From assembly GCA_900551865.1 (NCBI GenBank), contig URXV01000004.1, positions 5,597 to 69,596 on the forward strand: 64,000 nucleotides of DNA. Reading direction: 5' to 3'. This document shows positions 15,357 through 42,343 of this stretch, piece after piece. Origin of the DNA: an uncultured Rickettsiales bacterium (GTDB lineage: Bacteria; Pseudomonadota; Alphaproteobacteria; RF32; CAG-239). The notes below the pieces were generated by a model. The model did not search any database and was not told the DNA's origin. It worked only from the letters and a program-made list of their open reading frames with translations. Within the stretch, counting starts at the first letter, position 1. Each line of letters begins with the position of its first letter. The translations under genes and the position numbers were made by a program.

Positions 15357-15395
15357 ATCACTCAACAAACGTATTATTTGACAGGGAGGGAAATT

Positions 15396-19636: not shown

Positions 19637-19648
19637 GGGAGGCAGGCA

Positions 19649-20995
19649 ATGAAAAAACAGTTAATTGCAACGGCATTAATCTTCTCGCTGGCACTCGGTC
19701 CCAAACCTGCCGCAGCGTTGATTATTGATGCGCCGACGCTGGCAGCAAAAATCAGCGAATGGGCAGGTAAGCTTGCCGATGCCTCAACGCAGATAACGAC
19801 ACACGTTTCTCAGGCAAAACAGATGACGTCGCAGGGCTTCAATAAGGAAGAACTTTTCGGACTGGCTAAAGAATATGCGACCGAAAACGGTAAAAAACTG
19901 GTTCAGGAAAAAATGAAAAAAGTTGTCGAGGGAACCAAAAAGAAAAACAAGGATAAGCTTCAGGCAGAGCAGGATGCTTATGTAGAAGGGCGTAATCTGT
20001 ATTATGACGAAAAAATCGGCATCGTTGAAGAAAGCATAAAAGAAACCAGAAGTTTGCAGGCGTCAAAAGAAAGCGAACGCGACCAGAAAAGGGCGGAAGT
20101 CCAGCAAAAGAAAGCCAAATACGAAAGTGTAAAGCATATTCCCGGTGAAGCTGAAAAGGCGCAGGATGAATATATGACAGCCCAGATGGAATATGATGCG
20201 CTGGTTGCGGCGTGTACAGAACTGGATACTTTGGCTATAACGCTGGAGTCCCAGCGCGATACGCTGGAAAATGAAAAAGCCAAGGTTGGAACTTCGGAAG
20301 ACCCGCAGTATGTATCGTATCAGGCCCGTCTGAAAGAATTAGATGCTGATAAAGAAGACGAAACTTTTGTCAGCAAAGTAGCAGATGAGGAAGATATTGA
20401 ATGGAGTATGAAGAGTAATCCGGATATCGTCAACCAGTTTACGCCGACTGAAGAGGACTATAAAAAATTTATTGAACGTTATTTTTATGATCCGGAAGAG
20501 TTGGGCAGCGCGTCGGGCGATGAAGGGCGCATTATGCACCAGACAAAAATTGATGCCGTTGCGCGCGAACGGAAGTACTTGCTGACCAATACGGCGGCGC
20601 ATCTTTTACAGGTAACGGCAACGCTGCGGCGTGAGATTCCGGTGCGAACCGAAATAATTGACGAAATGTTCAAAAACACGCCCAAAGCTACCGGCGAGTT
20701 GGAGGCTATTTCGTCTTATTCGGCAACCAGAATAGAAAATATGAAGGCTCTGCTGATGTATGCCAAACTGCAAAGCGCCCGCTTGCAGTATATGGCGGCA
20801 AGAGAACTTTTGAATCTGAACGGTGTAAAAACGCCGAACGGAACCTATAAGGATTTTGATTTGGAAAAATATATTCTGACTAAGGAATATGTTGATAAGA
20901 TTGTAAAAGAGGCTGATACGGCCAACAATGCCGTAACCGCGGTGGAAGAAAATTACAAAGTTAACGGGGAGGACTACCAATGGTTAAAAAATTAA
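19649..20995 (+). CDS. Secreted coiled-coil T4SS-associated protein 4
   Basis: 448 aa. Signal peptide ..KPAAA then LIIDAPTLAAKISEWAGKLADASTQI. Charged helical repeats. No membrane helices, so it is not VirB6/TrbL despite its position. Confidence 0.45.
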   Translation: MKKQLIATALIFSLALGPKPAAALIIDAPTLAAKISEWAGKLADASTQITTHVSQAKQMTSQGFNKEELFGLAKEYATENGKKLVQEKMKKVVEGTKKKNKDKLQAEQDAYVEGRNLYYDEKIGIVEESIKETRSLQASKESERDQKRAEVQQKKAKYESVKHIPGEAEKAQDEYMTAQMEYDALVAACTELDTLAITLESQRDTLENEKAKVGTSEDPQYVSYQARLKELDADKEDETFVSKVADEEDIEWSMKSNPDIVNQFTPTEEDYKKFIERYFYDPEELGSASGDEGRIMHQTKIDAVARERKYLLTNTAAHLLQVTATLRREIPVRTEIIDEMFKNTPKATGELEAISSYSATRIENMKALLMYAKLQSARLQYMAARELLNLNGVKTPNGTYKDFDLEKYILTKEYVDKIVKEADTANNAVTAVEENYKVNGEDYQWLKN

Positions 20996-26473: not shown

Positions 26474-27232
26474 ATGGCTAATTTGATAAATCAAAAGATT
26501 TTGCGTATTGCCGACAAAGGGAAAGCCAAAGAGCCTCCCGCGTTCATCACGGAAGATGTTGTTGAAGTCCGTCGCGCAAAGCTGATTTATTACAAATGGA
26601 TATCGCGATTAATGGCGATGTTGGCCACTGTTTCGCTTCTTTACGGCGTTTGTACCACATTATCCATTTTAAAACTGGCTCCGGAAATAGTCATTGACCC
26701 GCAGATGTTTGTTGAGCTGTCTGATTCGCAGTCGCTTGTTAAAAGAGAACATATTAACCGCCGGATGGATTCGCGGGAAAAAATGATGATTAACTTTATG
26801 AAACAATATGTCGAACTGCGAAACACCTATATCAAAGACGAGCGGGAAATGAATAACCGTTGGCTTTGGGGTGGTCTTGTATCGTACTTGTCAACGTATA
26901 AGGTTTACAAGGAGTTTGAAAAAGTGTTTCCCAAACTGCGGGCAGAAATGGTAGAGAACAATTCCAGCCGCTCGGTAGAAATCCTGTCGGTTGAACGTAC
27001 CGGCGGCGAAAACAGCAATACTTGGAAAATTGAGTTCAAAACCTATGACTATACGTTTAAAAGCGACCGTTTAAGCCGCCGGTCCAGCGTTACGCCGACA
27101 ATTACCGAAAGGTATTGGACCGCCAACATCCGCGGTTATGTCGACCCGAACCGGAGAACGGCATACCGTCGCCTGCTAAATCCTCTCGGATTTGTCGTCT
27201 ATAGTTATTTTCAAAGCGAAATCGAGATTTAA
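26474..27232 (+). CDS. virB8: VirB8/TrbF-family protein, paralogue 1
   Basis: 252 aa. N-terminal cytoplasmic tail, one TM (LMAMLATVSLLYGVCTTLSIL), then a periplasmic domain with YVELRNTY..EM..RW and the C-terminal NPLGFVVYSY motif. Confidence 0.75.
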   Translation: MANLINQKILRIADKGKAKEPPAFITEDVVEVRRAKLIYYKWISRLMAMLATVSLLYGVCTTLSILKLAPEIVIDPQMFVELSDSQSLVKREHINRRMDSREKMMINFMKQYVELRNTYIKDEREMNNRWLWGGLVSYLSTYKVYKEFEKVFPKLRAEMVENNSSRSVEILSVERTGGENSNTWKIEFKTYDYTFKSDRLSRRSSVTPTITERYWTANIRGYVDPNRRTAYRRLLNPLGFVVYSYFQSEIEI

Positions 27233-27375: not shown

Positions 27376-27564
27376 ATGTATAAAGCGCTGATTTTGGTAT
27401 TTGCCGTCTTAATTTTAGCCGCCTGCAATCTGGTTGGCAGCTATTACGAGCCTGAACCCGTCGGAATAGGCAAAGACGTGTACGAACTTAAGCTTTCTCC
27501 CTGTGCCTGTATAGAGGTGGAACTGCCGAAGACGCTGCCGGACTGGTTCCGGGCAATGAGCTGA
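27376..27564 (+). CDS. Small lipoprotein (VirB7-like by size and context)
   Basis: 62 aa. RBS AAGAGGA. Lipobox LAAC (MYKALILVFAVLILAAC). It lies between the two virB8 paralogues and upstream of virB9. Confidence 0.45.
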   Translation: MYKALILVFAVLILAACNLVGSYYEPEPVGIGKDVYELKLSPCACIEVELPKTLPDWFRAMS

Positions 27565-27580
27565 ATTAGAGGTACGGTTG

Positions 27581-28345
27581 ATGGCTGAACAGATTTCTTC
27601 TGACAATACAAAAAAACTGCTCTTGGAGGGAGGCGGAGCCAAAGCGGCGCCGCAGCCTCGTCCGGCACGCCCGCACCGGCGTCCCGGAAATGCGGATATT
27701 GTTGTCGAGAATGCAACGGAAAAGCGTTATCTGTGGACGGCGCGGGCTTTTGCCATCATCTTTGCCGTCAGCCTGTGCTGTAATTTGATTCTGACGTATG
27801 TCGTATTCGCCATAATGCCGCTGTATCGGATTGAACCGTATTTGTTCAGTTTTTCAAACAAAGAAGACCAGATATATACTATCCATCCGGTGAAAAATAT
27901 CTATGAACATAAATATTTGACGGAAATTTTTGTCAGGGAATATGTCCTTCTTCGTAATACGTTTGTTAATGATGTTGAAGAAATGGAACAGCGTTGGGGG
28001 GCTGGCAGTACGATACAGGAGATGTCCGCAACCGGAGTTTATGATAAGTTTCGCAAGGAATTTGCCGATGCGGCGATTGAACTTATCCGCAAGCATAATA
28101 TTACCCGTAACATAAAGATTTCTTCCGTAACCGAGGTTGGCGGTGTAAACGGTGAAACCTGGTGGCAGGTGGAGTTTCGGGTTGAAGATATGATGCCGGA
28201 ATATGAAACGCCCCGTTTGAGCGTGTGGGTGGCTTCCGTTAAGATAAGATACCGTGCCAAACGGGTTAAATTTGGCGAAAGGCTGAAAAATCCGTTGGGA
28301 TTTACCGTCCTTGACTATAAACAGGTTGAACGCAAAACAAATTAA
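27581..28345 (+). CDS. virB8: VirB8/TrbF-family protein, paralogue 2
   Basis: One TM (FAIIFAVSLCCNLILTYVVFAIM). Motifs YVLLRNTF..EMEQRW and NPLGFTVLDY. ATG at 27581 is preferred over TTG at 27578. Confidence 0.75.
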   Translation: MAEQISSDNTKKLLLEGGGAKAAPQPRPARPHRRPGNADIVVENATEKRYLWTARAFAIIFAVSLCCNLILTYVVFAIMPLYRIEPYLFSFSNKEDQIYTIHPVKNIYEHKYLTEIFVREYVLLRNTFVNDVEEMEQRWGAGSTIQEMSATGVYDKFRKEFADAAIELIRKHNITRNIKISSVTEVGGVNGETWWQVEFRVEDMMPEYETPRLSVWVASVKIRYRAKRVKFGERLKNPLGFTVLDYKQVERKTN

Positions 28346-28367
28346 TTGAATGTTTAGGGTATGCATA

Positions 28368-30356
28368 ATGACTAAAGTATTGAACATTTTATCAGCGGCA
28401 ATTTTATCGTTGGGGGCGCTTGCAACTTTGGCCGAGGCTCAGGTAACCAAAGATAATCTGGATCAGAACGCAGACCAGAGCCAGGGGAATTATGCAGCTA
28501 CCAATTTAAATTATTTGGGGGGCGTCGGATCGCTTGGTATGATGCAAAGCGCGTGGAAGGACCCTCTGCAGCACATGGGAGAAGGGCAGACACGGCCGGG
28601 GTATACCAAATATTATTGGACACCGGAATTGGTTTTGCCGGTCAGAGTCCGCGAGGGAATGTATACTCTGATTAATTTTCCGAATTGGGAAGTTATTGAG
28701 AATGTCTATATCGGCGACGGACAGTCGTTTAATGCGGAAATACAAGGGCCTTCAAGTTTGATGGTTTACCCGGATTCGTCGCAGTTTGTCGGAGTGGATA
28801 CCAATATGATTGTTTTTGGTCGATCCGGTAATAAATATGTTTTTTATGTTCAAAGTGAAACGGTAAATACCGACCGCATTACTAATGCTATTATTGATAT
28901 AGAAGTCGTTAAAAACCGTCAGAATGCCAACGGCTCTGCGGTTATCGGAGCGGGAACAGGCGGCGGCCACATAAACGCCAACAGTTACAGCCAGGACGGA
29001 ACCAGTGCGGATGCAACGTTTACGCGTAATTTGCAAAAAGAGGACTGGATTGAAAAAATTCCTGTCGATCCGACGAAATTCAGGTTTGATATTGAAGTAT
29101 ATGTTCCCAATCCCGACGATATTGTTATTGCGCCGGAGCGCGTTTGGCGTGATAACATATTCACATATATTGATTTGGGAGACAAAGCTCTGACTGCGGT
29201 ACAACGGCCGATTGTTACATTGATTGTCGAACGTTCCGAAACACCCGTAGGCTTCCGGACAGCCGGGCCGAACAACCGTTTGATTATTGTTGAAGGCATG
29301 GGAGATATGGTTTTGCGCAGCGGAAAACGGATTGTTTGCCTGAAGCTCCGTCGCGCAGATTCTGACGGGTTGGAAAATACCGTTTATGCCAAAACGAACG
29401 AGTGGGATCTTCAGTCGGCGCATGCTTCCAAGCCGGAAAATGGCCTTGAAACCGGGCAGTATGAGGACGTGTACGGTAATGGCGGAGCCTCTCGGCCGAC
29501 CATGGGAAATAATAGTACGTCGGGAAATAACAGTGCATCTGGAAATAGTGGCACATCAGGAACCGGTGCGGCATTTTTTGAAAATAATTCATTTTCTGGA
29601 ACGCAAAATGCGACACAAAATAGTGGCGGCTTAAGCTATGAAGACATCATAAGCGGGCAAAAAGTCCCGGCCGGCAATGCAAATCAGTCTGGCAGGCAGC
29701 CGTCTTCAGGAGAAATGTCGCTAAACGATGCCTCCGCATTAAATTCTATTCCGAAAGCAACGCCTGTTGTTGCTCCGGTACAGAATAAACAGGATAATAC
29801 AACAGCTCCGCATCCGTCTCTGTCCGGGCAATATGACGTCAAGGCCGGCGGTGGTGCAGAACTTGTTACGCCGGAATACAACGGGAAACAGGATGTTTCG
29901 ATAACATATCAGAAGGATAAAGTTCAGGGTACTCCGGCGGCAGGAACACCGGCCGTGGGGAATTCGTCCAATAACTCAAGCCCCGTGCTGATTACGCCCA
30001 AAGAAGATGCCGCTGATAAAAACGCTGTTGTTTCCGCAGAAACGGAAGCTTTGCTGAAAGAATTCCGTGACGGCAAGGCTTTTGCCAATGTTGATGAAAG
30101 CAATATTTCTATTGAATTGGGAACGGATGAAGACGTGAATAATCTTGAAAAGTTGTGGAACGATATTTCCAAAAATTATTCAGCCGCTATAGGAAAATAT
30201 CAGCCCTTTTATTCGGTGGACACGCCTGCCGATGGTCAGGGGAGAGAAGTTTTTCATCTCCGCGTCGGGCCGGTAAAGTCATTGGATGAAGGGGATAATA
30301 TTTGCAGCCAGCTTGGGCGTAACGGTATCTTTTGCAGCGTGGTCAGAATACAATGA
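28368..30356 (+). CDS. virB9: VirB9/TrbG-like protein with low-complexity linker and C-terminal SPOR-like domain
   Basis: Signal peptide MTKVLNILSAAILSLGALATLAEA; the ORF is open from 28350. VirB9-like N- and C-domains are present (YYWTPELVLPVRVREGMYTLINFP.., IFTYIDLGDK..PIVTLIVERSETPVGFR..RLIIVEG). A Gly/Asn/Ser-rich linker follows, then the SPOR-like end. Confidence 0.7.
   Translation: MTKVLNILSAAILSLGALATLAEAQVTKDNLDQNADQSQGNYAATNLNYLGGVGSLGMMQSAWKDPLQHMGEGQTRPGYTKYYWTPELVLPVRVREGMYTLINFPNWEVIENVYIGDGQSFNAEIQGPSSLMVYPDSSQFVGVDTNMIVFGRSGNKYVFYVQSETVNTDRITNAIIDIEVVKNRQNANGSAVIGAGTGGGHINANSYSQDGTSADATFTRNLQKEDWIEKIPVDPTKFRFDIEVYVPNPDDIVIAPERVWRDNIFTYIDLGDKALTAVQRPIVTLIVERSETPVGFRTAGPNNRLIIVEGMGDMVLRSGKRIVCLKLRRADSDGLENTVYAKTNEWDLQSAHASKPENGLETGQYEDVYGNGGASRPTMGNNSTSGNNSASGNSGTSGTGAAFFENNSFSGTQNATQNSGGLSYEDIISGQKVPAGNANQSGRQPSSGEMSLNDASALNSIPKATPVVAPVQNKQDNTTAPHPSLSGQYDVKAGGGAELVTPEYNGKQDVSITYQKDKVQGTPAAGTPAVGNSSNNSSPVLITPKEDAADKNAVVSAETEALLKEFRDGKAFANVDESNISIELGTDEDVNNLEKLWNDISKNYSAAIGKYQPFYSVDTPADGQGREVFHLRVGPVKSLDEGDNICSQLGRNGIFCSVVRIQ
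30102..30353 (+). other. SPOR-like peptidoglycan-binding domain at the VirB9 C-terminus
   Basis: ISIELGT..FHLRVGPVKSLDEGDNICSQLGRNGIFCSVVRIQ parallels the FtsN-type SPOR ending (..RVVIGPVKGKENADSTLNRLKMAGHTNCIRL) in its shared G-P-V-K core. Confidence 0.55.
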
Positions 30357-33300
30357 ACGAAAATACCCGTTTTGAAGAATATGAAAGAAAAACCAGAAAA
30401 ATAATCCTTACGATAGGAATTATTGCCGGCATTTTTTTCCTGTTCGGACTGCTGGTAATTTCGTCGGACGAAGAAAATTATAACCCGGAAGAAACCTCTC
30501 CTGATTTTGTTGAAAACCAGAATATTCTTCCTGATGTTTCTGTTGATACGGAGCCGGTGTTTATAGATGCGGAGGACACGCCTGCTTCAGAGCGAAAAAA
30601 GCCGATTAAGGTTACTCCGGCTCAAATTAACATGAACAAATTTATCCTCGGTGTAGATACGCAGAATCAGAGTGTCTTAACTATTGGAACCGACGGCAGC
30701 GAAAGTATCCATATTGAGCGGGTTGAGTTGGTGGAAGAGACAGAAGACGGATTTGAGTTTCGAGACAAATGCCGCAATCGGGATTTGCGCGGAGATGAAA
30801 CCTGCAACGTTCTGATAACATGGGTGCCGCATCTTCCCGGAAATGTACAGAATAATTTTAAAATAATCTGGTATGAAACCAGATTGGATAAATCAAGTGC
30901 AAAATCGGAAGAAGTCAGCATAAAGGGAAGTGCGGTTTATCCGGAGGACACGCGCCAGGGGTGCGATGCGTCAACGGGGTGCAGCATCGGTGGCGACGGT
31001 ATAGGCGCCCATCGCTTGGCAATAGGGCCGAATGGCGAAATTATCGGCTATATAGACGAAGCGGGAAATGTACATGACCGGGACGGCAATATTATCGGCC
31101 GCGTTAATGAAGACGGAATGGTTGTCGATTCTGACGGTAATATTATTGGCGTTGCCCAAAATATGAAATTGGCTTATGACAAAGACGGCAACATTATCGG
31201 CTATGTCAAAACCGACGGCACCGTTGTCGATTTGCAGGGAGAAGTTATCGGCAAGGCTCTTCCGGACGGAACGATTGTGAACAGCAAAGGCGAAGTTATC
31301 GGCAAAGCTGTTGAAGCCGGATTTGTTTATGATGAAAATGGCAAAATAATCGGCCGGGTTCTGCCTGACGGAACCGTGGTGGACATCAATGACCCCAAAA
31401 AAATAATCGGCCGGCTGAATGAAAACGGCGAGGTTGTTGATGAAAACGGTAACGTTATCGGTAAGGTAACATCTTCCGGCAATATTGTAGTCGATGAAAA
31501 CGGCAATGTCCTCGGCGTCGTAATGCCTGATAACAGCGTTGTGGACAAAGACGGCAATATAGTCGGTTATGTTGATGAAAACGGCAATGTTTACCGGGTA
31601 GCTGAAGAAAAAATCGGTACCAACGGTGAGAGCCGGAAAATCGTTTATGACAAAGACGGCAAAGCCGTCGGTTATGTTGATGAAAACGGCAAGGTCGTTA
31701 AATTTTCAAAAGACGATAAGCCGAAAGTCATCGGGAAAGTCGGTGCCAGCCGGCGTTTGGCTTACGATAAGGATGGCAATGTTATCGGGTATGTCGATAA
31801 AGACGGAACAGTCAGGGATTTCAAAGGCAACACCATTGGCAAAATGGATAAAGACGGCAATATTGTCGGCAAAGACGGGAAAATAATTGGTAAAGCCGGA
31901 GCTTATGCCAAATTAGCCTTAGATAAGGACGGAAAAGTCATCGGGCATATTGACGAACAGGGGCGCGTCTTCGACCACAATGGAAAACACATCGGCAATG
32001 TTGATAAGAACGGCAATATCATAAGCACGGAGCGTGCCGGCAATTCGGCGGATAAAAAGCGCATTGCGTTGGGGAAAGATGGCAAACCAATCGGTTATAT
32101 TGATGATGACGGCAATGTTGTTGATTTTGATGGAAATGTTATAGGCAAAGTTAATGATAAAGGCGACATCATAGATAAAAACGGCCGCAGGATAGGAAGT
32201 GCCGGCGATTATGCGACTCTTGCTTTTGATAAAAGCGGCAAGGTAATGGGAATAGTTGATGATAAAGGACGGGTCATCGGCAAAGACGGAAAATTGCTGG
32301 GGTTTGTTGACAAAGACGGTAAAATTATCGGAACAAACGGCAAGATAATCGGCAAAGCAGGAACTTCCCGCCGGCTCGCCTATGATAAAAACGGCAAGTT
32401 TATAGGATATGTCGATACTGACGGCACGGTAAAGGGATGCGGTGGTATAGTCTTAGGAAAAGTTGATAAAGACGGTAATATTTTGGATAAAAATAACCGC
32501 GTAATTGGCAAAGCCGGAGAAGTCAGGGAACTGGCATTTAACGGCAAGGGCGTGTTTATCGGCTATATAGACGATAAAAAACGCGTAATCGATTGCAGCG
32601 GCAAAATAATCGGTGTTGTTGATAAAAACGGGAACATTATTGAATCCAGCGGCGAAAATCTTGGTACCGCCGGAAATTTCAAACGTCTTGCGTATGACAA
32701 AGACGGCAAGGTGATTGGCTATGTAACGCCTGACGGTACTGTAAAGGATTTCAAGGGTAATCTCATCGGCAGAATGTCTGCAGACGGAACAATATTGGAT
32801 AAGAAAGGTCGGGCTGTCGGCAAGGCCGGCGATTTTAGGAAAGTTGCAACGGACAAAAACGGCAATATTATCGGTTATGTTGATGAACATGGCCGTGTTG
32901 TTGACGAGAAAGGTAAAATTGTCGGTTTTATAGATAAAAACGGCAATGTAGTCAAAGCCGGAGATACCGTCATCGGCAAAACCTGCGTCAGAAAGAAAGT
33001 TGTTTATAACCGGCGCAACCAGATTATAGGTTTTGTAGAAGCCAATGGTACCGTAAAAGACTTCAATAACAAAGTTATCGGCAATGATAAAAATGGAGAT
33101 GTGGCTGATACCAAAGGAATTCTAATTGGAAAGACCGGCATAGCTTTGAATGTTGTCCGCCGGAGTGACGATGTCGTTATCGGTTATGTTGACGATAAAA
33201 ACTATGTGCGCGGTAATGAAAACAAAATTGCCGGTCTGGTTGATTTAAAAGGAAATGTGCTGGCCGTCAGGGAAAATATCATTGGAAAACTGGATGCAGA

Positions 33301-36300
33301 TAAGAAGACGCTGCGTGATAAAGGCGGTGAAATTATCGGTTATATGAAAAACAATAATTTCGCTTTTGATAAAAGCAATGAAATAATCGGATATGTAAAT
33401 GACAAGGGCGAAGTTGTCGCATCGGGAGAGATAATTTGTACGGCCTGCAAGAGCGCTAGGCTCGCTTATGATAAAAATGGCAATATCCTCGGATATGTTG
33501 ATGAAAACGGCAATGTTATCGGACCCGACGGAAAAATTGTCGGATATGTGGATAAAGACGGCAATGTTATAGGCGCCAATGGCGAAATAATCGGAAAAAT
33601 CGGCGATGGCCGCAGGCTGGCTCTTGATAAAAACGGTAAAGTCATCGGCTATATTGAGCCGGACGGCACAGTGAAGGATTTCAAAGGAAACATCCTTGGC
33701 AAAGTCGATAAAGACGGCAATATTGTTGACAAGGACGGCAACATCATCGGCAAAGCCGGTGCGGAACGCCGCCTGGCATTAGATAAAGATGGAAAGGTTC
33801 TCGGCTATGTCGATGAAAACGGGCGGGTTATCGATGAAAACGGCAATGTACTGGGGATGGTCGACAAAGATGGCAATATTATCGGAATTAACGGCGATAT
33901 TATCGGCTCGGTGGGCGAAGCCAAAAATCTGGCGTACGACAAAGACGGCAATATAATAGGCTACGTTGGCGAAAATGGCGAAGTCAGGGATTTTGCCGGA
34001 AATACGCTGGGGTATGTCGACGATAACGGTAATATTCTCAATAATACCGGAGAAATTATAGGTTCAGTCGGCAAAAATGGCAAATTAGCTTATGACAAGG
34101 ATGGCAATGTTATCGGATATGTTGATGAAAACGGCAACGTTTACGACTTTGATGGAAATTTAATCGGTAAAGCCAATCCTGACGGTACAATTACGGATCA
34201 ATACGGCCGGGTCATTGGCAGGGTAGGGGGAACCGCCGGGCTGGCTGTTGACAAAGACGGCAATGTTATCGGTTATATCGGCGAAGACGGAAACGTCTAT
34301 AAAGAAAACGGCGAACTGTTGGGTTTTCTGGATGATGACGGCAACGTCGTCGGGGTAACCGGAGAAGTCTTGGGAAAAGCGGATATAAGCAAGCGTTTGG
34401 CTTATGATAAGGACGGCAAAGTTATTGGTTACATTGATGATGATGGAACGGTTCATGATTTTGACGGCAATTTAGTCGGATATTTGGGCGAAGACGGGAC
34501 GATTCATGATATCAATGGCAATATCATCGGCAAAGCCGGAGATTTGTCCAAAGTTGTAGTTGACGAAAACGGCAAAGTTATCGGCTATGTTGATGATAAA
34601 GGACATGTAATAGGAAATGGCGGCAAGGTGATTGGGTTTGTTGCTGAAGACGGAACTGTTCATGGCAGCAGCGGAGAGGTAATCGGTCGCCTTGCGCAAA
34701 ATGGCAGCGGAACATTGAGCGTTGTTAATCGCCGGGCAGTATTGGACGGTAACGGCAATGTTATCGGCTATGTCGATGAAAATGGCAATGCCCGTGATTT
34801 TGACGGTAATATTTTAGGAACCGTGCAGGAAGACGGCAGCATTAAAGATTCTTCGGGAAAGATTGTCGGCCGGGCTGGCGACAATATGGAGTTTACTGCT
34901 GATGAGAACGGAAAGATTACCGGAAAAGTGGGGGAATATTCAAATCTGGCCGTGGATAATGACGGCAATGTTATAGGTTATGTTGGAAAAGACGGAAAAG
35001 TATATGATGCTGACGGGTTGGTAATAGGATTTATTGATGAGAATGGAAACGTCATCACCTCACGGGGTATTAAAATCGGCGCCGTCATAAAGAAGGATAT
35101 GATAGCTGTTTCCCCGAACGGATACAGCTTGGGAAGCATCAACAATCGCGGAGAAGTCGTTAATGCCAAAGACGAGGTTATTGGCAAAATACTGCCGAAT
35201 TCATTAATTCGGGCAACGGAAGGCAACAGCATTATCGGCAAAACGGTTGTCGGCGGTTTGGCTGTAGGCTGGGGATGCAGGCACTACGGATATGTTGACC
35301 GCGATGCAAAGGTAAAAAAAGACGGACAGGATACCGGATACCGGATGTTATTTGACCGCAGCATTGTAGATAAAGACGGCAATTATACCGGCGACGTAGC
35401 CAAAATAGGCTGGGTTCGGGATGATAAATGCAATATCATCGGCAAAGCCGGTTCTGACGGCTATGTGCGCGGCGAAAACGGGGAGTATGTCGGCTGTGTC
35501 AATCCTGACGGAGGAGTTTTGAATCCTGACGGAAAAGTCATCGGAAAAGTTTTTGAAATGTCCTATGCCCTGTATTACAGCGGCGAGATGATGGGACTGC
35601 TGACCCCGGACGGAAGCATTAAGTCAGGAGCCGGAACGGTTGGATGTGCAAATCTTCAAGGAGAGGTTCTGAACAAGGACGGTTTTATCGTTGGACAGGT
35701 GATGGACAAGTCTCAGGCGTATGATTTAAATGGAAAATTTATAAATAATTTATCAACATTCGGTTATGACAGCACGGAAGTTATTCCCAATACTAAAATT
35801 CTCTTGAACCGCCTTATTGTTAACCCGAAAAAAGAAATAAAGGGAATAGTGCTGCCTGAGAAAAATATAGTTGTCGATTCTAACGGTAAAGTTATCGGAC
35901 ATCTGTTTGCCGATGGTTATGTTTACAATCAAAAAGGCATTGCCGTAGACAGATTCATTTATGACGGAAGTTCTTTTTATGCAAACCGTCCCGGACGGCT
36001 TTTGCCGCAAGGGAATGTAGTGGATTTTAACGGTGATTATATTGGCTTTGTCAATGGTGATGGTACGGTTATAGATGTTTTGGGAACAGTTCTGGGACGA
36101 ATTGATGCCAAAGGTCGGATGTTTAACGAAAAAGGAGAATATAAAGGCGGAGTTCTACAAACCGGAGTTGGAATTGGGTATGACGGTTCGTATCTTGGAT
36201 ACGTCAGTAAAAGCGGCAAAGTGATTGACGTAGACGGCAATATGAGCGGGCTTGTCAGCTCAGACGGGCATGTGCTTGATAAAAATAAACAGATTATCGG

Positions 36301-36940
36301 CGAAGTCATCGGCGAAGATATTGTCATAGATGTTCAGGGCAATGTAAAAGGGTATCTGAACGCGTTCGGAGATATCATTGACGTTGAAGACAAAATTGCG
36401 GCGACAGTCCTTCCCGGCGGTACGTCAAACAAAAACTATAGTGTCCTGAAACATGGGGTCGTTTTGGATTATTCGGGGCGCATAATCGGGCAGGTCGTAG
36501 CGGATGGGTCGGTAGTTTCGGCTGACAATCGCCGCATCGGAAAAATACTGAGCTCAGGGCAGGCTGTTAATGACAGGGGGATTCTCTTAGGAGAAATCGT
36601 TGAAGGGGATATTGTAATAAACGAACAGGACAAAGTGGTTGGTTTTGTTAATGCCGAAGGAAAAGTACTGGACGAGGAGCAGTCTGTTATAGGAAAAATG
36701 ATTTCTTCAAATTTAGTTGTAGATAACAATGGAAAAATTATGGGACATCCGTATAAAATAGGTGCTAATATACTAGGGAACGGAGGAAAATATTTTGGTC
36801 GCCTTGCCCCGAACGGCAATGTGCTGAGTATAACAAACGGAAGGATTGGATATTTGAAGAGCAACGGCTCATATATAAATATCAGAAATCAGGTTTCCGG
36901 ATATGTATTGGATGAAGTCGCTCAAAACCGGAGGAACTGA
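30353..36940 (+). CDS. Giant single-pass membrane protein made of ~100 copies of a 17-residue repeat
   Basis: ATG at 30353 overlaps the virB9 stop (ATGA); the ORF is open from TTG 30332. Short basic N-tail plus one TM (IILTIGIIAGIFFLFGLLVI), then a ~170-aa non-repeat domain. The rest, to the C-terminus, is the unit (I/V/L)G-x-(V/I)-x-x-DG-x-(V/I)-x-D-x-x-G-x-(V/I). Confidence 0.85.
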   Translation: MNENTRFEEYERKTRKIILTIGIIAGIFFLFGLLVISSDEENYNPEETSPDFVENQNILPDVSVDTEPVFIDAEDTPASERKKPIKVTPAQINMNKFILGVDTQNQSVLTIGTDGSESIHIERVELVEETEDGFEFRDKCRNRDLRGDETCNVLITWVPHLPGNVQNNFKIIWYETRLDKSSAKSEEVSIKGSAVYPEDTRQGCDASTGCSIGGDGIGAHRLAIGPNGEIIGYIDEAGNVHDRDGNIIGRVNEDGMVVDSDGNIIGVAQNMKLAYDKDGNIIGYVKTDGTVVDLQGEVIGKALPDGTIVNSKGEVIGKAVEAGFVYDENGKIIGRVLPDGTVVDINDPKKIIGRLNENGEVVDENGNVIGKVTSSGNIVVDENGNVLGVVMPDNSVVDKDGNIVGYVDENGNVYRVAEEKIGTNGESRKIVYDKDGKAVGYVDENGKVVKFSKDDKPKVIGKVGASRRLAYDKDGNVIGYVDKDGTVRDFKGNTIGKMDKDGNIVGKDGKIIGKAGAYAKLALDKDGKVIGHIDEQGRVFDHNGKHIGNVDKNGNIISTERAGNSADKKRIALGKDGKPIGYIDDDGNVVDFDGNVIGKVNDKGDIIDKNGRRIGSAGDYATLAFDKSGKVMGIVDDKGRVIGKDGKLLGFVDKDGKIIGTNGKIIGKAGTSRRLAYDKNGKFIGYVDTDGTVKGCGGIVLGKVDKDGNILDKNNRVIGKAGEVRELAFNGKGVFIGYIDDKKRVIDCSGKIIGVVDKNGNIIESSGENLGTAGNFKRLAYDKDGKVIGYVTPDGTVKDFKGNLIGRMSADGTILDKKGRAVGKAGDFRKVATDKNGNIIGYVDEHGRVVDEKGKIVGFIDKNGNVVKAGDTVIGKTCVRKKVVYNRRNQIIGFVEANGTVKDFNNKVIGNDKNGDVADTKGILIGKTGIALNVVRRSDDVVIGYVDDKNYVRGNENKIAGLVDLKGNVLAVRENIIGKLDADKKTLRDKGGEIIGYMKNNNFAFDKSNEIIGYVNDKGEVVASGEIICTACKSARLAYDKNGNILGYVDENGNVIGPDGKIVGYVDKDGNVIGANGEIIGKIGDGRRLALDKNGKVIGYIEPDGTVKDFKGNILGKVDKDGNIVDKDGNIIGKAGAERRLALDKDGKVLGYVDENGRVIDENGNVLGMVDKDGNIIGINGDIIGSVGEAKNLAYDKDGNIIGYVGENGEVRDFAGNTLGYVDDNGNILNNTGEIIGSVGKNGKLAYDKDGNVIGYVDENGNVYDFDGNLIGKANPDGTITDQYGRVIGRVGGTAGLAVDKDGNVIGYIGEDGNVYKENGELLGFLDDDGNVVGVTGEVLGKADISKRLAYDKDGKVIGYIDDDGTVHDFDGNLVGYLGEDGTIHDINGNIIGKAGDLSKVVVDENGKVIGYVDDKGHVIGNGGKVIGFVAEDGTVHGSSGEVIGRLAQNGSGTLSVVNRRAVLDGNGNVIGYVDENGNARDFDGNILGTVQEDGSIKDSSGKIVGRAGDNMEFTADENGKITGKVGEYSNLAVDNDGNVIGYVGKDGKVYDADGLVIGFIDENGNVITSRGIKIGAVIKKDMIAVSPNGYSLGSINNRGEVVNAKDEVIGKILPNSLIRATEGNSIIGKTVVGGLAVGWGCRHYGYVDRDAKVKKDGQDTGYRMLFDRSIVDKDGNYTGDVAKIGWVRDDKCNIIGKAGSDGYVRGENGEYVGCVNPDGGVLNPDGKVIGKVFEMSYALYYSGEMMGLLTPDGSIKSGAGTVGCANLQGEVLNKDGFIVGQVMDKSQAYDLNGKFINNLSTFGYDSTEVIPNTKILLNRLIVNPKKEIKGIVLPEKNIVVDSNGKVIGHLFADGYVYNQKGIAVDRFIYDGSSFYANRPGRLLPQGNVVDFNGDYIGFVNGDGTVIDVLGTVLGRIDAKGRMFNEKGEYKGGVLQTGVGIGYDGSYLGYVSKSGKVIDVDGNMSGLVSSDGHVLDKNKQIIGEVIGEDIVIDVQGNVKGYLNAFGDIIDVEDKIAATVLPGGTSNKNYSVLKHGVVLDYSGRIIGQVVADGSVVSADNRRIGKILSSGQAVNDRGILLGEIVEGDIVINEQDKVVGFVNAEGKVLDEEQSVIGKMISSNLVVDNNGKIMGHPYKIGANILGNGGKYFGRLAPNGNVLSITNGRIGYLKSNGSYINIRNQVSGYVLDEVAQNRRN
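31620..35080 (+). repeat. Higher-order in-frame tandem repeat (~57 aa / ~170 nt, about 20 copies) inside the giant gene
   Basis: The recurring block is KAG-x4-LAYDKDGKVIGYVDEDGTVKDFKGNxIGKVDKDGNIVDKDGxIIG. Many exact 15-20-nt DNA matches recur, such as gataaagacggcaatattgt. The copy number is an estimate by eye. Confidence 0.7.
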
Positions 36941-36941
36941 T

Positions 36942-39900
36942 TTGCGCATTAAGATATTTGGATTAGGCAGGATTATATTGTCTGCGGCGTTGTTTTGGAG
37001 TATCAGCCAGAATGCCGTTGCAGCAGATATGAGTGCGCTTAATTTTAATGGAGATCTTATCGGTAAAGTCATTCCGGACGGTTCTGTTATTAACTTCAAT
37101 AATGAGCTTGTCGGTCATATTACGGCTGACGGCTTTGTGTTAAATGAGGATAACAGCCTGGCAGGCGGCATTGTTCCGCAGGGAATAGCCATATCTTATA
37201 ACAACAGCATCTTGGGAAAAGTCAACAATGACGGTTCTGTAACATCAATTAACGATAATCTTGTCGGAAAGGTTCTGCCCAATGGTTTGGTTGTAAATGA
37301 TAATTATGATGTACTGGGAGCCGTGGTCTCTCCCGGGCTAGTTTACAATGATTCGGGCAGTATCGTCGGAAGAGTTTCCGGAGACGGGCGTTTTTATAAT
37401 CTTGCGGGAGAAAATTCGGGGTTTGTAACCGCGGCAGGATATGCTTACGGCTATGCCGGAAGCGAAAGAAAAATCTTTTTGGCCGGCAGGTTGATTTCTT
37501 CCAAGATGGTTGTTTCATCGCAGGGGAAATTTTTGGGAAGTATCGCCCCGGACGGAAAAGTAATTGATTTGAAGAAAAATGTTATCGGCAATATTCACGC
37601 CAACGGTTTTGCATACAGCCCAGACAATCAGGTAATAGGCCATGTTGTCGAGGGCGGGTATGCTTTTGCTCTTGACGGAAGTTATATGGGGGTTGTCAGC
37701 TACAACGGAGAAGTCGTCAATAATGGTACGGTTGTTGCCCTGGCAGTTAGCGGCAATCGCGTTATTAACAGGGAAGGCGGCATTATTGGCTTTACCGTAA
37801 GTATGTCTGCTACGGCTAATACGTTGGACGGGAAATATCTCGGGCGGATTACGGCAGACGGAAAAATCGTACGGGGGCGAAATAAGGTTGGAAAAATCGG
37901 CGCATCCGGGCATGTTATAGATGACAAAGGGACGATTATTGGCACCGTAAATGCAACCGGGCCGATATTTGATTATTTAGGACAGCTTCGGGCAAATGCT
38001 TCGATTGGCGGAAAGGTCGTTTCTTTGGAAGGCGTTGACTTGGGGATAATGAAATCCGATGAAGCTTTTGATGGCAACGGCAAACGCATCGGTAAAATCT
38101 TGTCTGAGCGGCTAAATTTTAACAACAGCAATGACTTCATCGGTATCAGTGGCGTTAATTCAGTTTTGGAAGTTGGCGGAAAAACTTATAGAATATCGCC
38201 TTATGGCTATGTTTTCAATGAAACGGGAAATGTTAACGGAAGAAATTTCAACTTTGGCGACATTTATTCTCCTGAGGGAACAGCCCTGTCCTACACATCA
38301 GGCAATGGAAAAACAGAAAACGGTTCTCTGAATGAAATTGCTCGATTAACCGGCTCCGGTATATTTCTGGATAAAAATGATAAGCCGTTAGGTAAAATAA
38401 TTGAAGACAAATATATAACGGACTTTTCTGGAGAAAGTCTGGGAACTGTCAATTCGACAAATCTGGTTGTAAACGGGCAGAATAAGGCTTTTGCCAAAGT
38501 ATTGCCGGATGGCAGCGTTGTGAGCCTTTCCGGTCGGATTTCCCGGAATTACGGTAGAGCCGGAAGTGCCCCGGTAAGCATCAGCATAAACGGCGACTAT
38601 CTGGGAACGAATTTAATAAGCGGACAGGTTGTAAACGGAAATGAAACGGTCGGAAAAATAAGCTCTAACGGATACGTTTTGGATAACATGGGAGCGTTGT
38701 ACGGAACTGCTCTCTCTATGGGAGCCGTTGTTTCGCCTGAGTGCGGATTTTTAGGCGTAGTTTCTGACGGCGGAGAGGCAAGAACAAGCAAAGACGCATA
38801 TTTGGGAATGGTTTTGGCAAATGGTCAGGTTGTTAATGAAACGGAGCAGGTCGTCGGCCATGTCATCCACCCGCGTACGGTAATTGGCGAAAACGGAACG
38901 TCAATTGGGGTGTTAAGTCCGTTGGGAACGGCTCTGAACTATAAAAATCAGAATTTGGGATGTCTGGATATCAATGGTAAAGTTCGAAATGCCCAGAAAG
39001 AAATTATCGGTCAGATAATCCCGTATATGTCGGTAATGGGGTTTGATGATAAAATTATCGGATATACGGATTTTTATGGTAATGTGGCAGATAGTTCCGG
39101 AATTCAAACCGCTGTTATTGATTTAGACGGCAGTATTAAGGCCAAAGATGGGCGCAATATTGGTGTTCCTTTTAAATACACGGTAGCTTTTGACCGGAAT
39201 AACGTTTATCTTGGGCGCGTAAAGGCTGATGGCAGTGTAGTTTCCGATAGCGGCGAAACTTTGGGGCAAGTTAGGTATAACGGCGAAGTAATCACTAAAA
39301 ATGGCGGGAACGGCTACGCGTTATATGATTTGTATGTCTATGACAATGAGGGGAAAACCGTCGGATATATCGCCAAAAACGGTCGGGTTTACAGCGTAAT
39401 GGGAGAAATTATCGGAACTGTTTATCAGGGATTTGTACTGGATAAAAAACAGAATTTAATCGGTAGAGGAGCAAGGGGCTATGAAATTCTTGATGCGCAG
39501 AAACAGGTAATAGGTCATTTGAAGTTAGATGGTTCGGTTGTTAATGTCAAAAATGTAGAAGTTGGAAAACTTCAGCCGGATGGAAAGGTAACGGATGCTG
39601 GCGGCAACGTAATTGCTGTGGCCGAAAAACTCCAATATTATCAAAAACCGGTTGAACCGGAAAATGGAGTAAAGACGGCTGTTGAAACCAAAGGTGAAGA
39701 AACGGAAAATAAAACTCCGGCAGACGAAATTCATGAACAAGACGAAACTGATAAAACAGCAGAAAGCAGTGATGCGCAGTCAGGCATATCCACGGAGGAA
39801 GAAAATATCCCGGAGCTGACCGAGGAAGAAAAAGAGGCCGCTGATACCAAAATAAACCATAAAGTCATAGGGATAGCCGTAACACCGGGAGGAAGGTATA

Positions 39901-41264
39901 TCGGTGATGTATACAGCAATAATAAGGTAATAGATGAAACCGGAACCGTTGTTGGCAACATGGGAGAAAATGGCGAAATCACCGATAACGAGGGGAATAC
40001 GGTAGGCTCTCTGCAAGAGCAGAAATCGGAAGATGCCAAAAATATTAATACAAGATGGTGGCAGCAGATTGCAAGCGGAGCTACGGTTAATCCCTGGGAT
40101 TACCGAAACGAAGTAACCAATGTCGGTCCCGGCGGCGGTATAGGTCCCGGCGGCAGATATAATCCGAAACGTGCCGCTATATTGTCCCAGCTGCAGGAAG
40201 AGCGCCGTAGGACAATGACTGCGGCAAAAGTAATGCCCGGCTATAATGCTGCTTCATACACCGGTTGGCAGGACGATTGGGGGATAAACCGGGCAGTTTC
40301 GACTTTGCGGGTTAATATGGATAATATGATTACCGCAGATAAACCGATACCGGCTGTTTTGGCCAGATCCTTGATTTCTTTGGGTGAAGCGCCTGTTACT
40401 GCAATTGTGGAAAGGAATGTGTACGGAGATTCGGGGCGTAACGTTATTATTCCGGCCGGAAGCCGGGTAATCGGCGGGCTGCAGACAGTAGATGTAGAAA
40501 GCCGTTTTGACAATTCAAGTGGCGGTGTCAAACTTGAAATATCTTGGAGCAGGATAATTCGTCCTGACGGGATTGCATTTCTTCTGGATGCAGGAAGGAC
40601 GCAGACCGGTGATGCGCAGGGGCGCGGTGGCGGCGCTTTGGGATATGTTGATGAACAGCTGGTCAAAAAATATACGTTGCCAATCGTAGGAACGATGGTC
40701 AGCTCGGCAATAACGTATATGATGGCTGCTGATGAAGACAGTACCGGAGAGGTGGAAACGTCCAAACAGCAGGCAGCAACAGATGCCCGGCAGGAATTTA
40801 TGGATAAGATGGATCAGATATTGCAGGAAATTATTGACAGCAAATCGCAAATTCAGCCGGTTACCTATGTTCCGGCCGGAACAAGAATAATCATTTATCC
40901 GATGACCGATTTGTGGCTGAGAAGTACGAAAGATATTGAAAAGAACGTTGAGACAGCGCGTCCGGGCGGCGGAGACGGCGGTTTGGTCAACGAAGTATAT
41001 CCTGACGATGGCGGGACAAGAAGCACATCTCAGGTAGAAGGAAATAATGCCAATAACAGCCAGAAGGTTATTTTGGGCAATCAGGCGCAGACCAACAATA
41101 ATAGCGGTGGTGATGGCCTTGTAAACGAAAATCCGCAGAATAATCCGAATGCTCCTCAGCCGAGAAAGAATATCGGGGCAATTCCGCCGCCGGCAGCAGA
41201 CGGATCGGTCACGGAAGCTCCCGAGAGTGAAGAAGAAATATCCGGCGATATTGAACTGTTCTAA
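36942..41264 (+). CDS. virB10: VirB10/TrbI-family protein with ~900-aa N-terminal 17-residue-repeat region (CagY-like architecture)
   Basis: RBS GGAGGA then TTG at 36942 (the ORF also has ATGs at 36903 and 36912). N-terminal anchor/signal IFGLGRIILSAALFWSISQNAVA. About 50 repeat units follow (LIGKVIPDGSVINFNNE, LVGHITADGFVLNEDNS ...), then an acidic linker. The VirB10 C-terminal domain is at 40335-40920 (PAVLARSL..VTAIVERNVYGDSGRNVIIPAGSRVIG..WSRIIRPDG..TYVPAGTRIIIYPMTDLW). A ~110-aa Gly/Asn/Pro-rich tail ends the protein. Confidence 0.8.
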   Translation: MRIKIFGLGRIILSAALFWSISQNAVAADMSALNFNGDLIGKVIPDGSVINFNNELVGHITADGFVLNEDNSLAGGIVPQGIAISYNNSILGKVNNDGSVTSINDNLVGKVLPNGLVVNDNYDVLGAVVSPGLVYNDSGSIVGRVSGDGRFYNLAGENSGFVTAAGYAYGYAGSERKIFLAGRLISSKMVVSSQGKFLGSIAPDGKVIDLKKNVIGNIHANGFAYSPDNQVIGHVVEGGYAFALDGSYMGVVSYNGEVVNNGTVVALAVSGNRVINREGGIIGFTVSMSATANTLDGKYLGRITADGKIVRGRNKVGKIGASGHVIDDKGTIIGTVNATGPIFDYLGQLRANASIGGKVVSLEGVDLGIMKSDEAFDGNGKRIGKILSERLNFNNSNDFIGISGVNSVLEVGGKTYRISPYGYVFNETGNVNGRNFNFGDIYSPEGTALSYTSGNGKTENGSLNEIARLTGSGIFLDKNDKPLGKIIEDKYITDFSGESLGTVNSTNLVVNGQNKAFAKVLPDGSVVSLSGRISRNYGRAGSAPVSISINGDYLGTNLISGQVVNGNETVGKISSNGYVLDNMGALYGTALSMGAVVSPECGFLGVVSDGGEARTSKDAYLGMVLANGQVVNETEQVVGHVIHPRTVIGENGTSIGVLSPLGTALNYKNQNLGCLDINGKVRNAQKEIIGQIIPYMSVMGFDDKIIGYTDFYGNVADSSGIQTAVIDLDGSIKAKDGRNIGVPFKYTVAFDRNNVYLGRVKADGSVVSDSGETLGQVRYNGEVITKNGGNGYALYDLYVYDNEGKTVGYIAKNGRVYSVMGEIIGTVYQGFVLDKKQNLIGRGARGYEILDAQKQVIGHLKLDGSVVNVKNVEVGKLQPDGKVTDAGGNVIAVAEKLQYYQKPVEPENGVKTAVETKGEETENKTPADEIHEQDETDKTAESSDAQSGISTEEENIPELTEEEKEAADTKINHKVIGIAVTPGGRYIGDVYSNNKVIDETGTVVGNMGENGEITDNEGNTVGSLQEQKSEDAKNINTRWWQQIASGATVNPWDYRNEVTNVGPGGGIGPGGRYNPKRAAILSQLQEERRRTMTAAKVMPGYNAASYTGWQDDWGINRAVSTLRVNMDNMITADKPIPAVLARSLISLGEAPVTAIVERNVYGDSGRNVIIPAGSRVIGGLQTVDVESRFDNSSGGVKLEISWSRIIRPDGIAFLLDAGRTQTGDAQGRGGGALGYVDEQLVKKYTLPIVGTMVSSAITYMMAADEDSTGEVETSKQQAATDARQEFMDKMDQILQEIIDSKSQIQPVTYVPAGTRIIIYPMTDLWLRSTKDIEKNVETARPGGGDGGLVNEVYPDDGGTRSTSQVEGNNANNSQKVILGNQAQTNNNSGGDGLVNENPQNNPNAPQPRKNIGAIPPPAADGSVTEAPESEEEISGDIELF
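37050..39600 (+). repeat. 17-residue repeat region of the VirB10-like protein
   Basis: Same periodicity and consensus as the upstream giant, but more diverged and less charged. A few more units follow the acidic linker (39860-40010). Confidence 0.65.
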
Positions 41265-41362: not shown

Positions 41363-42343
41363 ATGGGAAAGTTGGACGATGAGGTGCTCTGCTCCGTTTT
41401 GAGGCCGCTTGCCTATTGGTATGAACAGGAAAATATCGAGGAAGTTGCAATCAACCATCCCGGAGATATTTGGCTCCGCTTGCGCGGAAAACGGGCTTTT
41501 CCTTGGGTAAACTATAAAGACCCCAAACTCTCAAGAGAATATTTGACCAATCTTCTGCATATTATTGCCAATTTGAATGATCAGGAGTTTGATCCTATTA
41601 ACGGGTCTCCTGTAGTTTACGCCCGAATTCCCGGAGGGCATCGTTTCACCGGCGTGGCCGGAAAAAACATTGAATACGATTTGGACGATTCGGCAACGGG
41701 GGGCATAGCCATAACAATACGTCTTCATACGGATGATGTTGCTTTCGGTTTTGGCGATTACGGGCTGGAGCAAGGTAAAAGGCTAAAGGAAATAAATCCG
41801 TTAAAAAACATAAAAGACCCGGATGACGCTTATGAACGTCTTCTTCTTGCGTTACGCCGCGGAGACCATATTCTTGTCAGCGGTGGTACCGGTACCGGTA
41901 AAACGACGTTGTTGAACAATTTGCTAAAGCTTTTGGATATTCATAAGAGGGTTATTACCGTAGAGGATACGCGGGAACTTAATGTGCCGCAGCCAAACCA
42001 TGTTCACATCGTCCTGTCGCGTACGGAACAGACTAACAGTATGGATTATTCCAAAGTTATCGACTTGATTGTGCGTTTTACGCCTGATGCCATTATTGGC
42101 GGTGAGATTTCAACCAGCAATGCTGCCGCCATCTGGGAACTGATGGGTTCCGGTCATGATAACTGCTTGGCGACAATCCATGCGGAAAGTTCGACTGCTG
42201 CCTATGAAGCGTTTGTAAAACGTATAATGCGCACTCAGCCTCACATTGATGTGGAAAAAACCATTGAAGAAATGCGTCGCAAACTCCATGTCGTCCAAAT
42301 TGTCCGAGATGGAAACATCCGCGGCATAACCGAAATCACCTGA
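41363..42343 (+). CDS. virB11: VirB11/TrbB-family T4SS ATPase
   Basis: 326 aa. Walker A GGTGTGKTT, VITVEDTRE, and His box GHDNCLATIHA. Confidence 0.9.
   Translation: MGKLDDEVLCSVLRPLAYWYEQENIEEVAINHPGDIWLRLRGKRAFPWVNYKDPKLSREYLTNLLHIIANLNDQEFDPINGSPVVYARIPGGHRFTGVAGKNIEYDLDDSATGGIAITIRLHTDDVAFGFGDYGLEQGKRLKEINPLKNIKDPDDAYERLLLALRRGDHILVSGGTGTGKTTLLNNLLKLLDIHKRVITVEDTRELNVPQPNHVHIVLSRTEQTNSMDYSKVIDLIVRFTPDAIIGGEISTSNAAAIWELMGSGHDNCLATIHAESSTAAYEAFVKRIMRTQPHIDVEKTIEEMRRKLHVVQIVRDGNIRGITEIT

Follow-up and report, generated by a model that had tools for sequence, protein, structure and literature searches.

We analyzed a 64,000-nucleotide stretch of contig URXV01000004.1 from an uncultured alphaproteobacterium (hereafter the window; coordinates are positions within it), which is identical to the record 'MAG: Acetobacter sp. 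46_36' (MNTT01000014.1; MAG, metagenome-assembled genome). Its type IV secretion system (T4SS) operon contains, on the forward strand, a giant gene at 30353..36940 that runs from an ATG at 30353 to a TGA at 36938-36940 and encodes 2195 aa, in agreement with the ~2200-aa reading frame of an initial annotation made from the letters of the window. The gene lies between a virB9 homologue (28350..30356, +) and a virB10 homologue of 1440 aa (36942..41264, +; Pfam, NCBIfam and a gene call in locus L001); virB11 follows (41363..42343, +). Its start overlaps the virB9 stop in the sequence ATGA (30353-30356), as had been noted, which supports translational coupling of the two genes. From the reading frame, its translation and colinearity with fused homologues, we consider it likely that the giant gene encodes one half, the one anchored in the inner membrane, of a VirB10 that was enlarged by beta-flower-type repeats and is now made as two polypeptides. 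We refer to it as virB10-N and to its downstream neighbor as virB10-C.

Domain layout and repeats of the 2195-residue protein

The protein begins with a cytoplasmic tail (aa 1-16, MNENTRFEEYERKTRK; 30353..30400) defined by an alignment of the N-terminal module (N-module, alignment A1), in which Y10 is invariant and N15 and R16 are at least 90% conserved. A single transmembrane (TM) helix follows at aa ~17-37 (30401..30463), found both by a hydrophobicity scan and by AlphaFold2, which predicts a helix at residues 6-37 (pLDDT 80-96) when run on the N-module alignment. The next segment, aa 38-84 (30464..30604), is an acidic, proline-containing linker (pI 4.05) classed as disordered from its composition and its pLDDT, which falls below 50 at residues 46-76. 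It leads into an Ig-like domain of the ASH/PapD/MSP type (aa 85-205; 30605..30967), where AlphaFold2 gives a confident beta-sandwich (residues 85-195, pLDDT ~90) that a Foldseek search against the PDB places in the ASH/PapD/MSP Ig-like fold (6fvi, E=1e-6; 2e6j, TM(target) 0.71). This domain has an invariant Cys140/Cys151 and a second Cys pair; the full set of invariant positions in A1 is Y10, C140, C151, W157, P159 and W173. The short tail, TM helix and unique domain of the initial annotation are thus all present, with sharper borders, and a single-pass protein with its bulk outside the cytoplasm is supported.

The Ig-like domain has relatives of its own. Against Pfam, it gives a weak match to Ig-CFAP74_2 alone (E=0.045). 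A search of 1.84 billion representatives found the domain by itself to be widespread in unrelated giant tandem-Ig proteins; a profile that contains the domain (aa 85-205) matches 8798 cluster representatives, among them proteins of up to 7259 aa with 10-39 tandem copies. We therefore count the domain as a member of a large and mostly unannotated bacterial tandem-Ig family.

From residue 222 onward the protein is built of beta-hairpin repeats. Its self-identity is 0.199 at a lag of 17 residues, 0.231 at 52 and 0.208 at 104, compared to 0.084 +/- 0.006 in shuffled sequences; given that the values at lags 17 and 52 lie far above the shuffles, the 17-aa unit that had been noted is real, but the strongest periodicity is that of a 52-aa super-repeat, which comprises three hairpins (consensus LAYDKDGNVIGYVDENGNVxDFDGNxIGKVDKDGNIVDKDGNIIGKAGxxRR). 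A strict 17-aa profile finds 70 units (0.25 in shuffles), spaced mostly 17 or 18 residues apart, and 34 or 35 where the third hairpin diverges. By autocorrelation, profiles, Pfam and AlphaFold2, the regular array covers aa 222-1580 (31016..35092) and holds ~78 hairpins in ~26 super-repeats. Profile scans, conservation and composition show that the remainder, aa 1581-2195 (35093..36937), consists of degenerate hairpins with 4 Cys, so that the repeats described as periodic to the last residues are regular only to ~1580 and continue in degenerate, Cys-containing form from there. Since residues 222-2195 divided by 17.3 aa give ~114 hairpins, 'about a hundred' units was a fair estimate. The degenerate region is kept in all split-form orthologues (defined below), and the C-terminal motif ...SGY.L.EVA.NRRN is common to homologues P0001-P0023 and the split loci.

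The initial annotation had found the repeats not to fit the YD/Rhs, MORN or choline-binding types; a reading of them as outside all described families is not supported. Pfam assigns the protein well above its curated gathering thresholds to two families of clan CL0395, Bflower_2 (PF21785; E=6.7e-145, 474 bits against a cut-off of 38, 22 stretches) and Bflower (PF21784; E=4e-96, 317.7 bits against 25), and also to DUF3659 (PF12396; E=4e-61, 203.2 bits against 24.8); summed scores for YD repeats are weak. The beta-flower families were created in 2023 by Durairaj et al. from AlphaFold models; they describe a shallow barrel of 8, 10 or 12 short strands with 4-, 5- or 6-fold symmetry and semiconserved [DNEQ]xxG hairpin turns, and come without a solved structure or known function (PMC10584680). 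Likewise, our protein contains 172 [DNEQ]xxG motifs, compared to 80.5 +/- 7.3 in shuffles, and its array consensus has D-x-[DN]-G at every turn, as expected of beta-flower hairpin tips (PMC10584680). We dropped a reading of these turns as calcium-binding DxDxDG loops; the motif D-x-D-G is typical of a tight beta-turn and is not the canonical loop. As the authors of the families also found, no solved structure matches (PMC10584680). In contrast, the described members are mostly small single domains of ~100 aa, some of them lipoproteins, whereas here ~114 hairpins form a 2000-aa array that is fused to a T4SS anchor module, its turns all short and with no enclosed helix predicted.

We modeled residues 1037-1348 with AlphaFold2 on an alignment of 11 paralogous and orthologous segments. 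The model consists entirely of short beta-strands, 36 in 312 aa or one hairpin per 17.3 aa, in support of the beta-hairpin protein that had been proposed; it gives the strands and not their higher-order arrangement, so the suggested fibre or solenoid is not established. Foldseek detects only local hairpin likeness in the model, to TcdA CROPs, Rhs cores and choline-binding repeats. The large blocks that make up most of the array differ in the sign of their net charge: aa 469-1036 (31757-33460) have a pI of 9.3 and 13% Lys, and aa 1037-1580 (33461-35092) a pI of 4.4. These charges could favor electrostatic pairing within or between molecules.

The gene is not an assembly artefact. The exact 2195-aa protein is encoded on at least 24 contigs from different assemblies (an index lists 28 blocks of the assembly collection), including a 108-kb human-gut metagenome contig and a Logan assembly; its exact sequence was not found in the clustered protein collection. 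At the DNA level, copies of the repeat share no more than 60-79% identity, and TRF detects next to nothing. Because the protein recurs on so many contigs and the DNA copies have diverged this far, collapse or expansion during assembly is no concern.

Colinearity with single-chain VirB10 proteins and the virB10-N/virB10-C junction

A search of 5.8 billion proteins returned 935 matches at E <=1e-10, and we sorted the best 120 by architecture. Proteins of the first type (1216-1581 aa) share the tail, TM helix, domain and repeats, end in ...SGYxLPEVAKNRRN and lack TrbI. In those of the second (~2100-2600 aa), this N-terminal module and the repeats lead into a TrbI (VirB10) barrel; a source name is given for few of them and reads 'hypothetical' or 'DUF3659 domain-containing protein [Alphaproteobacteria bacterium]'. 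The third type (~1500-1900 aa) starts with a Sec signal peptide and 'EITAIDFNGDLIGKVIPDG' and continues with repeats and TrbI.

virB10-C belongs to the third type. Its N-terminus reads MRIKIFGLGRIILSAALFWSISQNAVA|ADMSALNFNGDLIGKVIPDG..., with a Sec signal peptide at aa 1-27 (AVA|AD) that is conserved, together with the mature N-terminus, in orthologues. Degenerate beta-flower hairpins (aa 28-~900) are followed by an acidic linker (aa 901-980), a TrbI barrel (aa ~1121-1340; ~40302-40961) recognized by Pfam TrbI and by the NCBIfam VirB10/ComB10 domain, and a C-terminal tail that ends in LF. Pfam finds Bflower_2 in seven stretches (E=6e-54) in addition to TrbI, which confirms that the repeat of virB10-N also occurs in the virB10 homologue downstream. 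The 90% cluster of VirB10-C counts 697 members, those listed being 1440-1442 aa in length.

TrbI (PF03743) is absent from the 2195-aa protein by Pfam and present in the next gene at E=3e-29. Even so, the N-terminus has homologues among TrbI-containing proteins: by blastp, residues 1-220 match residues 1-215 of fused VirB10, tail and single TM helix included, and residues 220-440 align with 216-405 of the fused protein P0024 at 55% identity, giving a match of 1-440 to 1-405 overall. The C-terminal ~1400 aa of the fused proteins, TrbI included, align in turn with VirB10-C. The proposal that the protein is a new kind of component is not borne out, as the tail, TM helix, Ig-like domain and first repeats are colinear with long single-chain VirB10s. 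Because the N-part is colinear with these proteins and the N and C genes together fill the virB10 slot (see below), the 2195-aa protein is, on gene order and alignment, a TrbI-less half or paralogue of VirB10. The broader claim that it is a structural part of the T4SS is almost certainly right, and it is also supported that no model T4SS is known to carry this repeat.

In the profile search of the same 1.84 billion representatives, every complete TrbI protein with a full N-module is at least 2085 aa long. Short N-module proteins of 170-574 aa were considered as ancestral repeat-free VirB10s and rejected; all of them lack TrbI and break off in the middle of the domain or of a repeat, and so are fragments.

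Scanning one genome per GTDB species with TrbI alignment A2 yielded 155 relatives, all from gut or rumen MAGs of uncultured Alphaproteobacteria. Among the best 79 loci from other species, 47 are split like the window, 12 are fused and 20 have neither assignment; in many of the latter, the C-part is of the signal-peptide type and the upstream gene was not recovered. The N-part of the 47 split loci ranges from ~1090 to 2250 aa, counted from the N-module, and the fused genes encode ~2170-2670 aa. The gene order is virB8-virB9-virB10-virB11 in all 12 fused loci, and in all seven split loci examined the N and C genes fill exactly the slot between virB9 and virB11.

At the junction, a Shine-Dalgarno (SD) sequence for virB10-C, GGAGGA (36930..36935, +), lies inside the last codons (NRRN) of virB10-N. 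The virB10-C start, a TTG at 36942, is six bases past it and follows the TGA at 36938-36940. We compared this region in 50 split loci, the 47 from other species plus three copies of the window locus. The NRRN codons AAy-CGG-AGG-AAy hold the SD in 48 of the 50, the two without it being the most divergent (L041 and L043), and the C-part starts 1-8 nt past the N-part stop and encodes a signal peptide whose AxA| site is conserved. The N-part ends in TAA in 25 loci, in TGA in 20 and in TAG in 5, and the relative frame of the two parts differs as well (15, 20 and 15 loci in the three frames). Because stop and frame vary among species, while SD, start and signal peptide are conserved, we rejected read-through or frameshifting into a fusion of the two reading frames as the rule. 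Conservation of the SD, start and signal peptide in split loci across species indicates that the split is ancient and has been maintained, its two genes being coupled in translation, and that it does not mark a pseudogene. As an observation in its own right, the conservation of NRRN at the end of the protein is enforced by a signal for translation (48/50 split loci; window junction 36926-36944).

Conservation along the pair peaks on both sides of the split. Among close orthologues, the last 95 aa of the N-part are 78% identical, compared to 67-71% in the flanking regions, and the first ~100 mature aa of the C-part are 79% identical, compared to 59-65% in the rest of its repeats. Maxima at the termini facing the split would fit a docking interface. 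The least conserved part of virB10-N is residues 881-1580 (54-58% identity), and residues 1037-1580 carry 18% gap columns; with the array least conserved and carrying indels, its copy number drifts between species.

A proposed VirB10 in two polypeptides and competing explanations

If virB10-N and virB10-C are the two halves of one VirB10, VirB10-N would sit in the inner membrane with its N-terminus inside and expose ~2150 residues in the periplasm as an array of small all-beta modules. On the cytoplasmic side, its conserved tail would make contact with the inner-membrane ATPases, like the N-terminus of VirB10 in model systems. VirB10-C would be exported by Sec and contribute the outer-membrane barrel, and translational coupling would yield the two in near-equal amounts. 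The halves would then join non-covalently through their repeat arrays, probably docking via two conserved stretches, the last ~95 aa of VirB10-N and the initial ~100 residues of mature VirB10-C, and so restoring the inner-to-outer-membrane bridge of the canonical single-chain VirB10. Multiplied by the ring stoichiometry, the halves would form an enlarged scaffold in the periplasm, with a role like that of the CagY/CagX periplasmic ring or of DotG plus DotF. More tentatively, it is possible that the gut and rumen clade as a whole builds its T4SS on a VirB10 with a beta-flower linker of 1500-3600 aa, and that one subclade makes it as halves that reassemble via the repeats.

Several points weigh against this explanation. 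The case for association of the two halves consists of co-occurrence, coupling and local conservation, and one part of it is weakened because the embedded SD constrains the terminal NRRN. By blastp, residues 1580-1800 of the giant protein and 28-250 of VirB10-C both map to ~357-570 of the fused proteins, but all repeat regions cross-align at ~25% identity (residues 1581-2195 with VirB10-C 28-900). The split could have arisen by either fission or partial tandem duplication. The repeat model is of moderate confidence (pLDDT 71, pTM 0.35), dipping every ~52 aa at linkers, and a Foldseek search with it found no global match in the PDB (TM <=0.16); the array may be arranged as closed flowers, half-flowers or a continuous sheet. 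Given that the ~30 modules of an N/C pair far exceed what spanning the periplasm requires, a bridge cannot be the whole function. We recognized no VirD4, polytopic VirB6, VirB2 pilin or relaxase in the 64-kb window. Finally, all organisms with the family are uncultured, and the support is comparative and computational.

The excess of repeats is one reason to ask whether the array instead reaches beyond the outer membrane, as an adhesin or immune-modulating fibre whose copy number varies under host pressure, as proposed for the repeats of CagY. The ~114 hairpins are far more than are needed to cross the periplasm, the low identity and gaps described above fall within the array, the N-part varies twofold in length across species, and the habitat is the gut; moreover, the CagY repeats are reported to be surface-exposed and to recombine, and the variable repeats of DotG have been argued to be exposed (PMC6761968). 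We consider a host-facing array unlikely, however: the 2195-aa protein keeps its N-terminal TM anchor uncleaved, the cytoplasmic tail is conserved, domains of the outer-membrane or autotransporter type are absent from it, and VirB10-C is constant in length among the listed cluster members. In addition, DNA repeats that are only 60-79% identical make rapid in-frame recombination of the CagY kind improbable.

Alternatively, the modules could serve less as a bridge between the membranes than to hold the machine in place in the envelope by binding peptidoglycan or lipids. The VirB9 homologue encoded next door has a peptidoglycan-binding domain (see below), the repeat blocks are strongly charged, and the Tubby clan is relevant on the lipid side. 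On the other hand, the protein has no aromatic-rich or known peptidoglycan-binding motifs, and its Pfam matches are to repeat families only. Such a cell-wall or lipid scaffold seems to us quite unlikely as the main role, and it is compatible with a split VirB10 rather than exclusive of it.

The 'YD..G' flavor of the hairpins raises the question of whether the protein is an Rhs/YD-repeat shell, a toxin-encapsulating cocoon that lies in a T4SS operon by chance. Summed scores do pass the cut-offs (Pfam RHS_repeat, 64 bits; NCBIfam YD_repeat_2x, TIGR01643, 91 bits), the Rhs toxin Tse5 is the sole match in a PDB sequence search (E=0.008), and the local hairpin similarity in Foldseek includes Rhs cores. 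Yet no individual YD stretch is significant in Pfam or NCBIfam, the period is 17 aa and not ~20-21, and the TM-score to Rhs cores is ~0.10, well short of a structural match. There is no DPxGL or PxxxxDPxGL core motif and no C-terminal toxin domain, the C-terminus being repeat sequence; beta-flower models score far higher, and the N-module is shared with VirB10 proteins. We therefore rejected an Rhs/YD identity, which these results largely refute and which we regard as highly improbable.

Just as improbable is a decaying virB10 fragment or an artefact of a repetitive region, which the absence of TrbI, the domain that defines VirB10, and the highly repetitive sequence might suggest but which conservation already refutes: 47 other species have intact N-part reading frames with the conserved C-terminal region and embedded SD, the downstream partner has gained a conserved signal peptide, and the identical protein recurs across assemblies with diverged DNA repeats.

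The surrounding operon and relation to known secretion systems

The genes around the pair add detail to this T4SS. The virB9 product (668 aa) combines a CagX domain with a C-terminal SPOR domain, which is peptidoglycan-binding and unusual for VirB9 (aa 596-666, E=4e-4; Pfam), and which suggests that this T4SS may be tied to the cell wall. Upstream lie two virB8 paralogues (26474-27232 and 27578-28345, +), each matching Pfam VirB8, and between them a gene call in L001 marks a small lipoprotein (MYKALILVFAVLILAAC..., lipobox ...LILAAC; ~27376-27564, +) that is probably VirB7. A VirB3-like hydrophobic reading frame lies just upstream of virB4 (~12580-12873, +); neither it nor the VirB7-like lipoprotein matches a family model.

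Between virB4 and virB8 there are five consecutive genes (15378-26436, +) for proteins of 408, 744, 232, 448 and 1818 aa. All five start with a signal peptide, share coiled-coil-like sequence and resemble one another in an N-terminal motif, AF(V)WPV(I/L)D..EI.., and none has a Pfam or NCBIfam match; by position, they may be VirB5/TrbJ-like paralogues. The 1818-aa protein varies between strains and is 1802 aa long in another assembly (L002).

virB11, the ATPase gene (Pfam T2SSE), is the last of the operon, a position it holds in all related loci examined. The operon ends there, adjoining engB-yidC-rnpA-rpmH on the opposite strand; because of this border, the T4SS is chromosomal. Divergent from it is a complete type IVb (bundlin/Tcp-like) pilus cluster (161-9282, -), with a Bundlin-like pilin (161-829, -), a T2SSF platform protein (864-1985, -), a T2SSE ATPase (1997-3667, -), a PilO-like protein (5263-6555, -), a secretin (6552-8162, -) and a TcpQ-like protein (8146-9282, -). 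A T4SS next to a type IVb pilus is reminiscent of IncI plasmids, although here the locus is chromosomal.

The canonical VirB10 is a single chain of ~380 aa that crosses both membranes via a proline-rich linker. Like the VirB10/TraF of A. tumefaciens, pKM101 and R388, the pair described here has a cytoplasmic tail and a single TM helix, fills the slot that virB9 and virB11 enclose and encodes a TrbI barrel at its 3' end. In contrast, the linker is replaced by about 1500-3000 aa of hairpin repeats and an Ig-like domain, and the chain is in two polypeptides, the barrel half having a cleavable signal peptide instead of an anchor.

Large VirB10 homologues are known from other systems. In Helicobacter pylori, CagY is a VirB10-family protein enlarged several-fold (from the canonical size of about 380-400 aa) by tandem repeats before its TrbI-like domain, and it belongs to a core complex that is itself enlarged and has a periplasmic ring (PMC9371333, PMC6761968). 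A large repeat region between anchor and TrbI is likewise present in the fused relatives and in the N and C proteins taken together. The CagY repeats are alpha-helical modules according to Delahay 2008, as cited in PMC9371333, and its near-identical DNA repeats recombine in frame; here the repeats are all-beta and their DNA is diverged. CagY is also one polypeptide, whereas here there are two. DotG (IcmE) of Legionella and Coxiella is another VirB10 homologue with variable central repeats and a conserved TrbI C-terminus, and DotF (IcmG), a separate periplasmic protein anchored in the inner membrane that works with DotG, resembles the pairing of an anchor with a barrel (PMC6761968). However, DotG has pentapeptide repeats, a type not found among the Pfam matches of the 2195-aa protein, and keeps its own N-terminal anchor; and DotF does not descend from VirB10, in contrast to VirB10-N, which has its homologue in the N-terminal part of the relatives' VirB10.

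The repeat family, described and uncharacterized, and repeat-expanded VirB10 homologues as a kind are thus already known. We found no description of a beta-flower VirB10 architecture in the searchable literature on DUF3659, beta-flower and RF32 T4SS. Within that literature, two features appear to be undescribed: beta-flower hairpins as a VirB10 expansion across a gut alphaproteobacterial clade, and a VirB10 that is divided, in a conserved manner, between one half with the anchor and another with the barrel.

To our knowledge, no T4SS subunit other than VirB10 crosses both membranes as a single chain, and in model systems it is thought to relay conformational changes, driven by ATP at the inner membrane, to the pore in the outer membrane. 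A conserved, natural VirB10 in two polypeptides challenges the need for covalent continuity in this process and offers a system for testing that idea, although tractability is limited for now by a finding that is comparative and computational and by organisms that are uncultured. If the split VirB10 does reassemble, it would be the first functional context for the beta-flower fold, and a natural test of whether a covalent VirB10 couples the inner-membrane ATPases to the outer-membrane gate. The beta-flower and DUF3659 families would gain a concrete cellular context as a periplasmic part of a secretion machine, and the locus flags an unstudied T4SS in common but uncultured Alphaproteobacteria of the human gut.

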